DNA of 64,000 nt from Candidatus Fermentibacteraceae bacterium. GTDB lineage: Bacteria > Fermentibacterota > Fermentibacteria > Fermentibacterales > JCC-6. The notes under the pieces were generated by a model that saw only the letters and a list, made by a program, of their open reading frames with translations, was not told the origin of the DNA and made no database searches. The stretch spans positions 2,133 through 66,132 of the forward strand of contig JAFGPK010000005.1 in the NCBI GenBank assembly GCA_016936235.1. The letters are read 5' to 3'. The position numbers and the translations under genes are program-made. This document shows, in pieces, positions 25,211 to 28,669 of this stretch (the stretch's first letter is position 1; each line of letters starts with the position of its first letter).

Positions 25211-25239
25211 TTGTTTCCCCGGGCTTGCTGAAATATAAT
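25211..25239 (+). promoter_or_regulatory. sigma70-type promoter of gatED
   Basis: TTGTTT-N17-TATAAT (perfect -10). Confidence 0.6.
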
Positions 25240-25331
25240 TGAGCTCTGTTCACAGATTGCTCCCGCTCTTTCCGAATTCGAAGGATATCCATTGTTCATT
25301 GCCGGAAATACTGAAAGGAGCCCGTTCCATC

Positions 25332-27278
25332 GTGATCAGGAGACTGGATGAGACCTCCCCGTCGGATTACCTGGAGATAGGCCTTCGAAGCGGTCTCGAG
25401 ATACATCAGCAGCTGGACACCGAGAAGAAGCTGTTCTGCCGCTGTCCTGTCCTTCCCTATAGAGATGACTATGACGCCCAGGTCCTGAGGCACATGAGGC
25501 CCACCCTGTCGGAACTCGGTGAATACGACGGCACGGCCCTCATGGAATTCAAGACCAGGAAGAACATCATCTACCAGATAAACAAGAACACCATATGCAC
25601 GTACGAGATAGACGACACCCCGCCTTTCGAGCTCAACCGGCAGGCCCTGGAGTTCGGACTGGAGATAACCATGCTCCTGAACTGCAAGCTTGTGAGCGAG
25701 ATACATGTCCAGAGGAAGCAGTACCTGGACGGATCCATTCCCGCGGGTTTCCAGAGGACCACCATTCTGGGGGTGGACGGATGGATACCTTTCGGTGACA
25801 GAAGGATAAACATCATCCAGCTCGGTCTCGAGGAGGATGCCTGCAGAGAAGTCAGCGACAGGGGTCACCTGAGGGTCTACCTGACGGACAGGCTGGGCAT
25901 ACCCCTGATAGAGACCGTGACCGCCCCCGAGATGAGGACTCCGCATGAGGTGGCCCAGGTTGCCAGGATCCTCAGCAACCTCGCCAGGGCTTCGGGCAAG
26001 GTCCGCCGCGGCATTGGAGCGGCGAGACAGGACGTAAACGTCTCCGTGGAAGGCGGTAGAAGGGTGGAGATCAAGGGAGTGTCGCGTATCCCGGAGATCC
26101 CTCTTCTCGTCCACAACGAGGCTTTCAGACAGGTGTCATTGCTGGAGATAAAGGCTGAACTGGGAAGAAGGGGGATAGGGGATACAGATTTCAGCCATAA
26201 GGTGCTCGATCAGACCGGTGAGCTAGCCGGGACCTCCTACCCTCCGGCGGCTTCCGCCCTGAAGCAGGGACATCGGCTGAGGTCGGTGCTCCTCAGGGGG
26301 TATTCCGGTCTGCTCTCCGTACCGACGCAGCCAGGGAAGACATTCGCTGACGAGATCTCCGACAGGGTCAGGGTGATCGCGTGCCTCGACACCCTTCCGA
26401 ACATCGTGCACGATGGCGGCGGGGGGGAGAGCTTCTCCGGCGCGGAATGGGAAATTCTGAAGCGGAACGCCTCCTTCCGTCCCGAGGATGCACTGGTGGT
26501 GGTATGGGGATCGCCGGAGGACCTTGAGACAGCGGTGGGGGAGATAGCCATAAGGGCCAGGGAGGCCATCGACGGAGTCATCAACGAGACCAGGCAGTCA
26601 CTGCCTGACGGGACCAACGGTTTCGAGCGCATCCTGCCGGGTCCCAACAGGATGTACCCCGACACGGACCTTCCACCCATCGCCATAGGGAACGAACTGA
26701 TCGGCAGGATAACCTCCGGATTGCCGGAAAGGCCCTGGGAACGCGAGGAAAGGTACGTGACCGCCGGAGCGGCACCTGAATCGGCAAGGCAGATGAGCAT
26801 CTCCCCCCTGAGGGACCTCTACGATGAGGCCCTGAAAGTGTCCGATTACTCCCCGGGGGAACTCATGCATTTCTTCCTCAGCACGCTGAGCCATCTGAAG
26901 AAAAGAATCGACGTGCGGGAAGTGCCTGGAGACGTCCTCCTGCATGTACTCTCCGCCACCGGTGATTCGGGGCTTCCCCTCGAAGCCGCGGCTGCCGTCC
27001 TCAGGAGCGTATGCATACCCGGGGGGATTAACATCTCCGATGCACTGAAAGCACTGGAAATCCCCGGAGACGACGAGATCAGGAAGATGGCGGGTGACCT
27101 GGTCCGTGAGATGGACACGGAGACAATGGGGGAAGGCGCTCTCGCGCGCCGCCTGACAGGCATGATCGTCGAGAAATCCGGTTTTCTGGCGAAAGGCGCA
27201 AGGGTCACGGAGATAGTCAGGGAGTTCATCCCCGCCGGCAGCGAGTTCGCTGCCTCTTCTCGGAACAGCAGGAGGTGA
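25332..27278 (+). CDS. gatE: Glu-tRNA(Gln) amidotransferase subunit E (archaeal type)
   Basis: GLEIHQQLDT.KKLFCRCP, RPTLSELGEYD..A, YE.DD.PP, DGSIPAGFQRT, LEEDACR, DRLGIPLIE, VRRGIG..RQDVNVS, a GAD-like insertion, ETR, PGPNRMYPDTD; start GTG 25332 after AAAGGAG. Confidence 0.93.
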   Translation: MIRRLDETSPSDYLEIGLRSGLEIHQQLDTEKKLFCRCPVLPYRDDYDAQVLRHMRPTLSELGEYDGTALMEFKTRKNIIYQINKNTICTYEIDDTPPFELNRQALEFGLEITMLLNCKLVSEIHVQRKQYLDGSIPAGFQRTTILGVDGWIPFGDRRINIIQLGLEEDACREVSDRGHLRVYLTDRLGIPLIETVTAPEMRTPHEVAQVARILSNLARASGKVRRGIGAARQDVNVSVEGGRRVEIKGVSRIPEIPLLVHNEAFRQVSLLEIKAELGRRGIGDTDFSHKVLDQTGELAGTSYPPAASALKQGHRLRSVLLRGYSGLLSVPTQPGKTFADEISDRVRVIACLDTLPNIVHDGGGGESFSGAEWEILKRNASFRPEDALVVVWGSPEDLETAVGEIAIRAREAIDGVINETRQSLPDGTNGFERILPGPNRMYPDTDLPPIAIGNELIGRITSGLPERPWEREERYVTAGAAPESARQMSISPLRDLYDEALKVSDYSPGELMHFFLSTLSHLKKRIDVREVPGDVLLHVLSATGDSGLPLEAAAAVLRSVCIPGGINISDALKALEIPGDDEIRKMAGDLVREMDTETMGEGALARRLTGMIVEKSGFLAKGARVTEIVREFIPAGSEFAASSRNSRR

Positions 27279-28669
27279 TCCGGGTGTCATCCGACCGTTA
27301 CAAGGGTTACAGAGGAAGAAGTCTCGACTGCCTGAGAAAATTCGATGCCGGCGTCTGGTCCGACGTGGAGATCAGGTCATCCAGGGGTGATTTCAGGGGC
27401 GTGATCCTCCCGAGGTCCGAGACTGCCGACGACGCGCACATCGTGCTCAAGATACACAATGGCTACAATATCGGGATCGACGTGGACACCGTAGAGTCAA
27501 TAACCGAATTCGGCAGGATCGAGGCGCACTACAAGATACCCGAAAAGGAGTTTCCCTTCGATCCGGGAAAACCGAATGTCAAACTCTTCGGCACCGGCGG
27601 AACGATCGCCTCCAGGCTGGATTACAGGACCGGGGCGGTGATACCCGCCTTCTCTCCGGGGGAACTCTACGGATCGGTCCCGGAGCTGGCGGACATATGC
27701 AATCTCAGGACGGAGAAGCTCTACGGGGTTTTCAGCGAGAACATGGGGCCGGAACAGTGGAAGGGAACGGCGGAAGCCATAGGCAGGGAGATAGAGAACG
27801 GGGTGGACGGCATAGTCATAGGCCATGGCACCGACACGATGCACCATACCGCCGCAATCCTGTCTTTCATGGTTCAGGATCCGCCTGTCCCCATCGTCAT
27901 GGTGGGTTCCCAGCGTTCCAGCGACAGGCCTTCCAGCGACGCGGCCCTTAACCTTATGAACGCCACCTATGCAGCCGCCAGGAGCGACATAGCCGAAGTC
28001 ATGGTCTGCATGTTCGGTCCCACCAGCGACCAGTACGGGCTCCTTCACAGGGGAACGAGGGTCAGGAAGATGCACTCGTCATACAGGTCCACGTTCAGGA
28101 CCATAGGGGACATTCCACTTGCCATGGTGATGAAGGACGAGATCAGGGTACTCAAGGATGACCACAGAAAGCGAAGGAAGGATCGGACGGTGACCGTTAA
28201 CACGGCATTCGACCCCAGGGTGTCCATAGTCTACTATTACCCGAACATGCAACCCGACATCATCGATTCCCTGATCGACAACGGATACAGAGGGATAGTC
28301 ATCGCCGGCACCGGCCTGGGCCACGTCAACAAGCCTCTCTACCCGGCGCTGAAGAGAGCTTTCGATCAGGGAGTGCATGTATACATGACCGTCCAGACTC
28401 TATGGGGATACGTCCAGATGTTCGTCTACGACACCGGAAGGGACATGATGGACCTCGGCGTCATCCCGGCCTCCAACATGCTGCCGGAAGTCGCTTACAT
28501 GAAACTCTGCTGGGCCCTGGGCCAGACCATGGACAGGGAGGAGGTCCGCAGGATAATGTGCACCCCTGTCGCGGGCGAGATTACGGAACGTGAGCCGCAT
28601 AACGGATACATGATACTTCAGGGAGGCATCCCCGAGGTGGAGGAGTTCATCAGCAGGTACAACCGTTGA
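27275..28669 (+). CDS. gatD: Glu-tRNA(Gln) amidotransferase subunit D (asparaginase-like, archaeal type)
   Basis: GatD N-terminal domain (LKIHNGYNIG), GTGGTIASRLDYRTGAV, HGTDT, GSQRSSDRPSSD, HRGTRVRKMHSS, GTGLGH, MLPEVAYMKL; overlaps the gatE stop. Confidence 0.93.
   Translation: MIRVSSDRYKGYRGRSLDCLRKFDAGVWSDVEIRSSRGDFRGVILPRSETADDAHIVLKIHNGYNIGIDVDTVESITEFGRIEAHYKIPEKEFPFDPGKPNVKLFGTGGTIASRLDYRTGAVIPAFSPGELYGSVPELADICNLRTEKLYGVFSENMGPEQWKGTAEAIGREIENGVDGIVIGHGTDTMHHTAAILSFMVQDPPVPIVMVGSQRSSDRPSSDAALNLMNATYAAARSDIAEVMVCMFGPTSDQYGLLHRGTRVRKMHSSYRSTFRTIGDIPLAMVMKDEIRVLKDDHRKRRKDRTVTVNTAFDPRVSIVYYYPNMQPDIIDSLIDNGYRGIVIAGTGLGHVNKPLYPALKRAFDQGVHVYMTVQTLWGYVQMFVYDTGRDMMDLGVIPASNMLPEVAYMKLCWALGQTMDREEVRRIMCTPVAGEITEREPHNGYMILQGGIPEVEEFISRYNR

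Follow-up and report, generated by a model that had tools for sequence, protein, structure and literature searches.

Does a bacterial genome genuinely carry GatDE, the amidotransferase that makes Gln-tRNA(Gln) from Glu-tRNA(Gln) in Archaea, and if it does, what would the enzyme do there? The locus that raises this question lies in the draft genome of a Candidatus Fermentibacteraceae bacterium (GCA_016936235.1, here G000), in a 64,000-nucleotide (nt) stretch of contig JAFGPK010000005.1 that was analyzed as a whole and that we refer to as the window. Reviews of 2008, 2021, and 2022 describe GatDE as an archaeal signature or as an enzyme of Archaea only (this and other background is drawn from PMC2330236, PMC8007984, PMC9499178, PMC2978374, PMC4846661, PMC13047044, and PMC4206432). 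A first-pass annotation had nonetheless recognized an intact gatE-gatD pair in the window, and had proposed that it was acquired from Archaea and may let its bacterial host make Gln-tRNA by the archaeal route. Our analysis retains the genes, finds them to be old in the phylum and shared with many other bacteria, and places them beside a different set of partner enzymes than that proposal would predict. The elements at the center of the question are as follows (aa, amino acids).

25239-27278, + strand: gatE, kinase/transamidase subunit; longest open reading frame (ORF), 679 aa; above the cut-offs of NF003107 and TIGR00134
27275-28669, + strand: gatD, ammonia donor subunit with an asparaginase fold; 464 aa (461 aa if translation begins at the GTG at 27284)
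27270-27286, + strand: gatE/gatD junction; AGGAGG, a GTG overlapping the TGA stop, and a second in-frame GTG

Families were assigned by scores above the curated cut-offs of NCBI (NCBIfam and TIGR models) together with Pfam domains. By this measure both genes are what they had been taken to be. GatE scores 481.9 bits with NF003107 (cut-off 456) and 421.6 bits with TIGR00134 (cut-off 319.55), and every GatB model stays below its cut-off on the same ORF (best 136.4 bits vs. 338). GatD scores 517.4 bits with TIGR02153 (cut-off 324) and 517 bits with NF003217 (cut-off 310), and has the Pfam domains GatD_N (51.7 bits), Asparaginase, and Asparaginase_C. Both proteins align end to end with solved structures: GatE with PDB 1zq1_C (342 bits) and 2d6f_C (298.6 bits), at 33-34% identity, and GatD with 2d6f_A (421.3 bits). 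The motifs RPTLSELGE, PGPNRMYPDTD, and GSQRSSDRPSSD, on which the first-pass annotation had relied, are present in the translations, and its assignment of the pair to GatE and GatD rather than to GatB and AnsA agrees with the hidden Markov model (HMM) scores, the structure alignments, and the fold match described below. According to a review, the Mg site of Methanothermobacter thermautotrophicus GatE consists of His15, Glu157, and Glu184, mutation of which kills the enzyme, and GatD works through the asparaginase catalytic Thr and a Thr-Asp-Lys triad. The window GatE has His, Glu, and Glu at the aligned Mg-site positions, and these are unchanged in every GatE sequence of two alignments, one of 9 and one of 57; the alignment of 57 contains ∼120 invariant columns. 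In GatD the stretches TGGTIAS, HGTDTM, and RKMH are identical to those of 2d6f_A, and we take them to hold the individual residues of the triad.

The predicted fold of GatE points in the same direction. An AlphaFold2 model made from the homologue alignment (mean predicted local distance difference test score [pLDDT] 84.4) has its best matches in 2d6f_D (Z 36.9, 511 residues aligned) and 1zq1_C (Z 33.3), and matches GatB chains at Z 25-29 in alignments that take in the tail. Residues 284-416 of the model would form the AspRS-like insertion domain that GatB does not have; this part matches bacterial AspRS at Z 12-14 over 111-120 residues. The C-terminal part is predicted to be helical (pLDDT 76-94) and to align with the tails of GatB up to residues 633-638, and its matches to the tRNA-binding domain of GlnRS (Z 9.7 and 7.5) fall within the chance range for helical domains. 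This tail is the most divergent region of the protein, with one invariant column past about residue 470. Separately, GatE ORFs in genera g18 and g19 and in family f3 are shorter (∼560-630 aa), with HMM alignments that end near position 550 of 622, and their C-terminal tail seems reduced or further diverged.

The two genes are co-oriented and overlap, as had been described: the gatE stop (TGA, 27276-78) shares bases with a GTG at 27275. Another in-frame GTG, at 27284, stands 8 nt past the AGGAGG (27270-75) and is better spaced than the first, a layout that suggests translational coupling of gatE and gatD. For gatE itself, the likeliest start is the GTG at 25332 behind a GGAG at 25317-20, giving 648 aa, which is also the length of an 86%-identical relative (P0002); in the public annotation the gene begins at 25299 (659 aa).

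Could the pair be an archaeal fragment that faulty assembly or binning placed in a bacterial genome? The assembly is in draft state, with 117 contigs (completeness 94.44%, contamination 0.43%), and two types of GatE occur in some archaeal bins, so that binning can mix sources. However, gatE and gatD sit in the middle of a contig of more than 64 kb, between bacterial genes, and both junctions are bridged with 0 differences by DNA contigs that another sample of the same study yielded (24989-26121, 27204-28068, and 28046-29400). Identical pieces of the locus were also recovered in a run from another study. The GC content of the region is unremarkable (0.58-0.60, compared with 0.54-0.63 across the window), GatE is present in 49 of the 58 phylum genomes, and a 70%-identical relative (L048) shows size-matched ORFs in an unchanged order, among them ORFs at the places of the upstream kinase and regulator, although in that relative only GatE has been confirmed and the other ORFs are unannotated. 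A gap in coverage at 26122-26664 in run X2 proves nothing, and runs X3 and X6 hold small shares only of the locus, with pieces at 90-95% identity that come from relatives. The locus is no assembly artifact: independent contigs across its junctions rule out the chimera that the first-pass annotation had named as a way for its reading to fail, and a misplaced archaeal fragment is, in our judgment, extremely improbable. Contigs from a metatranscriptome (RNA) library match gatE at 25994-26193 and 26702-26912 and gatD at 27650-27839 and 28208-28452 with 0-1 differences, although such a library can contain carried-over DNA. The gatE-gatD module is thus genuine and probably expressed.

The distribution of the pair shows that it is no peculiarity of one genome. 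Because GatE scores above cut-off in 49 of the 58 phylum genomes examined (each at least 80% complete), the gatE-gatD pair is old in the phylum and vertically inherited; this spread and the ordinary GC content also bear out the earlier idea of an old, compositionally ameliorated locus. In a panel of 41 genomes, 35 from the window's order and six from outside it, GatE is above cut-off in 29, with 28 of 35 positive within the order and one truncated copy besides. Four single-genome genera of the same family (G098, G099, G100, and G126; 94-95% complete) do not have it, and these look like lineage-specific losses. Beyond the phylum, a species-level genome set (one genome per species) contains 561 stretches with a confirmed GatE relative; the best 80, from which names were taken, comprise 78 bacterial records and two labeled Thermoplasmatales. 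The closest named proteins come from metagenome-assembled genomes of Candidatus Aegiribacteria and Fermentibacteria, and named bacterial carriers include Krumholzibacteriota, Latescibacteria, Calditrichia (among them a Caldithrix abyssi record), Zixibacteria, Marinimicrobia, Aminicenantes, Ignavibacteria, Bacteroidota, and Elusimicrobiota. When gatE/gatD neighborhoods were compared in seven other loci (L048, L100, L088, L091, L097, L099, and L072), a gatD-sized ORF followed gatE in all seven, with GatD confirmed by Pfam in three (L100, L091, and L088), and the wider surroundings differed from locus to locus. In L068 and L088, gatD reads as a pair of frames that overlap, for which errors of long-read assembly may be responsible.

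The existence of bacterial gatE and gatD genes is not new to databases. Public pipelines already name bacterial proteins GatE and GatD, as the first-pass annotation had suspected for uncultured bacteria. A search of the literature, supplementary files excepted, brought up no paper on a bacterial GatDE; gene tables of the genome papers on Aegiribacteria, Caldithrix, or Ignavibacteria may list gatD and gatE without comment. The word "amidotransferase" is absent from the main text of the Aegiribacteria genome paper.

How, then, is the bacterial clade related to Archaea? A search with the window GatE in 41 Thermoplasmatota genomes found, in eight of them, a GatE with 44-50% identity (490-600 bits), which we label class A; the remaining matches have 31-42% identity, and the full-length ones mostly 31-38%. 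There are accordingly two GatE classes within this one archaeal phylum (G054-G096, loci L133-L139). In five of its eight carriers no GatE other than class A was found, the other three having both classes, and on this ground we rejected the idea that class A is a separate functional paralogue in Archaea; where it is the sole GatE found, it presumably does the essential job. Two of the five class-A-only genomes were checked with the glnS model (G054) and scored below its cut-off. In two class A loci the gene order is gatE, archaeal-type glmU, glmS, with gatD not adjacent, and because archaeal-type glmU and glmS adjoin, these loci are truly archaeal. Sequence similarity thus places the bacterial clade nearest to one archaeal sub-lineage, which makes an archaeal link plausible and would fit an old transfer between the groups, in either direction. 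To this extent the proposed connection with Archaea is plausible; the other part of the proposal, a single transfer into one bacterium, is not supported, since the genes occur in many bacterial phyla.

With the archaeal GatDE of known structure (M. thermautotrophicus, 2D6F; Pyrococcus abyssi, 1ZQ1), the window's proteins share a two-subunit plan and domain order (in GatD the GatD_N domain and an asparaginase fold, in GatE a cradle, a predicted AspRS-like insertion, and a putative helical tail), as well as the His, Glu, and Glu of the Mg site and the Thr/Asp/Lys stretches of GatD, with fold matches at Z 33-37. The setting differs in several ways: the host is a bacterium with GlnRS, its tRNA-Gln begins with a U1-A72 rather than the archaeal A1-U72 pair, and the genes form a tight gatE-gatD operon, whereas gatE stands without an adjacent gatD in the two archaeal loci examined. 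The tail domain here is also too divergent for Pfam, unlike that of class A, the nearest archaeal relatives, where Pfam still recognizes the tail of a relative (61 bits).

A check of glnS, asnS, and gatCAB, which had been suggested along with the archaeal-route proposal, did not bear it out. The genome encodes GlnRS (724 bits, cut-off 425.8) and AsnRS (551 bits), which are above cut-off in 35 and 34 of the 41 compared genomes, respectively, and this does not support the view that the host would make its Gln-tRNA by the archaeal route. It also has one bacterial GluRS, two copies of glutamine synthetase, and an AsnB-like gene that passed a generic model and fell below the cut-off for true AsnB (223.6 < 499). 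GatCAB was not found: GatA has no match in this 94.44% complete genome and is above cut-off in 0 of the 35 order genomes, and the only match to the GatB model in the genome is the GatE ORF itself (92.6 bits < 314.8). In relation to bacterial GatCAB, the overall reaction would be the same, GatB is a paralogue of GatE, and the tRNA type that GatCAB handles (U1-A72) is the type of this genome; the differences are that the ammonia donor is the asparaginase-fold GatD instead of the amidase GatA, that there is no GatC, and that neither GatA nor GatB turned up here or in any of the 35 order genomes. Carriers in other phyla show a similar picture. In a check set of 16 GatE-bearing genomes (15 bacteria and one archaeon), AsnRS is present in 16 of 16, GatA in 8 of 16, and GlnRS in 13 of 16, the misses being two small partial genomes and the archaeon. 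Bacterial GatDE is therefore regularly found in addition to a complete set of charging routes.

Among the 38 tRNA genes detected, which are an incomplete set, there is no odd extra tRNA apart from tRNA-Sec, and genes for tRNA-Asn and tRNA-Asp were not found in the assembly. The tRNA-Sec gene (anticodon UCA) lies at G000 C4:3846-3942 (L124:47-143), and the organism probably uses selenocysteine. A tRNA-Glu(CUC) gene at G000 C22:19247-19318 (L041) stands ∼150 nt downstream of gltX; it has a G1-C72 pair, and its D-loop exceeds that of tRNA-Gln by one base.

What role is left for GatDE in such a genome? We give even chances to the reading that it offers a non-essential second route to Gln-tRNA(Gln), with a bacterial-type tRNA as its substrate. 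By analogy with the family, GatD would release ammonia from Asn or Gln and pass it to GatE; GatE would first phosphorylate the side-chain carboxyl group on a mischarged aminoacyl-tRNA and in a second step amidate it. The likeliest substrate would be Glu-tRNA(Gln), supplied through mischarging by the single GluRS in parallel to GlnRS, and the enzyme would have to accept a U1-A72 tRNA-Gln instead of the archaeal A1-U72 form. Precedent favors this substrate, Glu-tRNA(Gln) being the one that characterized GatDE uses and class A being the sole GatE found in five of eight archaeal carriers. Because GlnRS, AsnRS, and glutamine synthetase coexist here without GatCAB, such a route would be accessory and losable and not the only one to Gln-tRNA, a status that the presence of GlnRS and the four near-complete genomes of the same family without GatE also support. 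Several observations weigh against this reading. Both tRNA-Gln genes (anticodons CUG and UUG) are of the bacterial type, with U1-A72 and G73, which also speaks against the co-adapted tRNA-Gln that the first-pass annotation had thought possible; archaeal GatDE, according to reviews, reads A1-U72 tRNA-Gln, and it is GatCAB that recognizes U1-A72 tRNAs. The need for a second route beside GlnRS is not evident, and Glu-tRNA(Gln) may not be made at all, just one GluRS having been found. The last 198 residues of GatE match zero Pfam families at E ≤ 10, GatB_Yqey included, and the possible carry-over of DNA into the RNA library tempers the sign of expression.

The single GluRS might itself be expected to tell whether Glu-tRNA(Gln) forms, and at first sight it too speaks against the reading: it has Arg at the position of Arg358 of the Thermus thermophilus enzyme, where a change to Gln makes that GluRS non-discriminating. 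Arg is likewise found in 7 of 7 GluRS from five GatDE-bearing, GatCAB-free genomes. However, two control genomes with GatCAB and without GlnRS, which should depend on a non-discriminating GluRS, also have Arg in the only GluRS detected (they are 88-89% complete, and a second GluRS may be missing), and in two other genomes a second GluRS has a non-Arg residue there. With the control failed, we dropped Arg358 as a sign of a discriminating enzyme, and the residue decides neither way. Two further observations concern GluRS genes. gltX and glnS lie next or almost next to each other in many FCB-group genomes with GatDE (G047, G053, G042, G056, G038, and family f3), and two GluRS copies occur in one Caldithrix-labeled and one Krumholzibacteria genome, in the latter with one copy that does not have the Arg358-type Arg.

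A different supplier is suggested by the AspRS of the genome.

G000 C39:48469-49746 (L007:1492-2832), - strand: sole AspRS, archaeal AspRS2-like type; 446 aa

This enzyme passes two models for aspartate--tRNA(Asn) ligase (NF003483, 513.9 > 353; TIGR00458, 372.6 > 368.4), its nearest solved relative is the non-discriminating AspRS2 of T. thermophilus (1n9w, 367.7 bits, compared with 280.8 for the enzyme of Thermococcus kodakarensis), and it has Pro at the position of T. kodakarensis Lys85. Pro at that position is reportedly a mark of tRNA-Asn recognition, a finding that is said to go back to Feng et al. in 2005. A bacterial-type AspRS is present in 0 of the 35 order genomes and in 6 of 6 outside the order, and this looks like an order-wide swap of a core synthetase. 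Such an enzyme would open the way for GatDE to act in the role of GatCAB in the window's order, amidating Asp-tRNA(Asn), alone or together with Glu-tRNA(Gln). In Thermus and Deinococcus, an AspRS of this kind works with GatCAB even though AsnRS is present; the window's order resembles them and Bdellovibrio, which retain the amidotransferase for tRNA-dependent Asn synthesis, in having GlnRS and AsnRS alongside an amidotransferase and an AspRS of archaeal, non-discriminating type, and differs in that they have GatCAB with the archaeal-type AspRS as a second copy, whereas here GatDE occurs with the archaeal-type AspRS alone. The lack of GatA across the order and an AsnB-like gene below the true-AsnB cut-off fit as well. 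M. thermautotrophicus GatDE rejects Asp-tRNA(Asn) by reading the first base pair together with positions 19 and 20 of the D-loop; as this rejection rests on features of the tRNA, an enzyme adapted to U1-A72 could accept both tRNAs. On the other side, every characterized GatDE is a Glu-tRNA(Gln) amidotransferase, and no GatDE is known to act on Asp-tRNA(Asn). AsnRS is present across the order, the assembly offers no tRNA-Asn gene to inspect, and outside this phylum the AspRS of bacteria with GatDE is of the bacterial type (14 of 15 above cut-off and one partial), with GatA kept in 8 of the 15; because these carriers have bacterial-type AspRS, any link between AspRS and GatDE is local to the order. 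Amidation of Asp-tRNA(Asn) is thus a serious contender that we nevertheless regard as unlikely. Slightly more doubtful still is the larger scenario that the identity rule of the bacterial clade switched from A1-U72 to U1-A72 and that in this order GatDE replaced GatCAB beside the archaeal-type AspRS, which would make it the first GatDE to form Asn-tRNA(Asn), by itself or along with Gln-tRNA(Gln).

The pair could also serve some other task (a different acyl-tRNA, a non-translational amidation, or a tRNA-gated asparaginase or glutaminase tied to nitrogen status) or be a dispensable relic. Complete direct routes coexist with it everywhere examined, including the other-phyla carriers with their AsnRS and GlnRS, it has been lost in four near-complete genomes of its own family, and the region of GatE that would sense the tRNA is the most divergent one. 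Some neighbors, too, are related to nitrogen: glutamine synthetase in Krumholzibacteria, NtrC-type pairs in the window and in Ignavibacteriaceae, and an aminotransferase in Aminicenantes. However, the remaining neighbors are unrelated (MeaB, UvrA, and aldolase), and the two NtrC-type response regulators are 38% identical, which is ordinary for paralogues. The catalytic and tRNA-binding domains all appear to be kept at the level of the predicted fold, and the ∼120 invariant columns among 57 sequences argue for the ancestral chemistry and against decay. We consider such another task, or a relic, to be improbable, more so than amidation of Asp-tRNA(Asn), and we retain a second route to Gln-tRNA(Gln) as the preferred account.

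The genes around the pair are clearly bacterial, as the first-pass annotation had stated.

22213-23883, + strand: histidine kinase upstream of gatE; Pfam HisKA/HATPase_c
23891-25165, + strand: sigma-54-dependent response regulator directly upstream of gatE; Pfam Response_reg/Sigma54_activat/HTH_8
25211-25239, + strand: putative sigma-70 promoter, unproven; TTGTTT (25211-16), 17-nt spacer, TATAAT (25234-39)
28739-32443, + strand: hpf, HPr kinase, HPr, and PtsI directly downstream of gatD; Pfam

The sigma-70 promoter that had been assigned to the pair fared less well than its flanks. The TTGTTT and TATAAT elements are present, but the -35 element matches at 3 of 6 positions only, a promoter scan of the window gave 3 sites (2.1 ± 1.6 in shuffled sequences) with none upstream of gatE, and an RNA-library contig (25079-25373) crosses the elements and the regulator/gatE intergenic region; the promoter is not confirmed. 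A promoter-like site also occurs at 28666-28694, before hpf. A sigma-54 promoter before gatE was considered and rejected, the window having 16 matches compared with 21.4 ± 5.1 in shuffles and 0 in 25166-25331.

Other features of the neighborhood vary among loci. Further upstream in the window, a 689-aa ORF at 20055-22124 appears hydrophobic by eye and matches no Pfam family, and L048 has an ORF of about that size at the corresponding position. In L091 (Ignavibacteriaceae) a histidine kinase and a sigma-54 response regulator follow gatD (9425-12356), whereas in the window they precede gatE. With regulators that are 38% and kinases that are 25% identical between the two loci, we did not accept a conserved NtrC-type two-component system beside gatED, and keep it as a lead. 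In a Krumholzibacteria locus, an ORF with the catalytic domain of glutamine synthetase lies directly upstream of gatE (L068:4991-6016). A tRNA gene linked to gatED was likewise rejected: among 60 related loci, five have a tRNA gene, of differing kinds (Gly, Glu, His, and Ala among them), one has a tmRNA gene, and none has tRNA-Gln or tRNA-Asn.

These results make the GatDE of the window less singular than the first-pass annotation held, and the role proposed for it is not the one that its context backs. They are nevertheless of real interest to the aminoacyl-tRNA field, since the setting differs from that of archaeal GatDE in its bacterial host, GlnRS, U1-A72 tRNA, tight operon, fast-evolving tail, and dispensability. 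A widespread and conserved clade of bacterial GatDE contradicts the statement that the enzyme is found in Archaea only. It also bears on two ideas that appear in the reviews: that GlnRS was never adopted by Archaea because GatDE co-evolved with A1-U72 tRNA-Gln, and, as a proposal cited there, that the last universal common ancestor had both amidotransferases. The bacterial clade amounts to a natural experiment that touches the first, in which GatDE has been freed from essentiality and faces bacterial U1-A72 tRNAs beside GlnRS. The window's order, finally, may show a non-discriminating AspRS in a new partnership with an amidotransferase.

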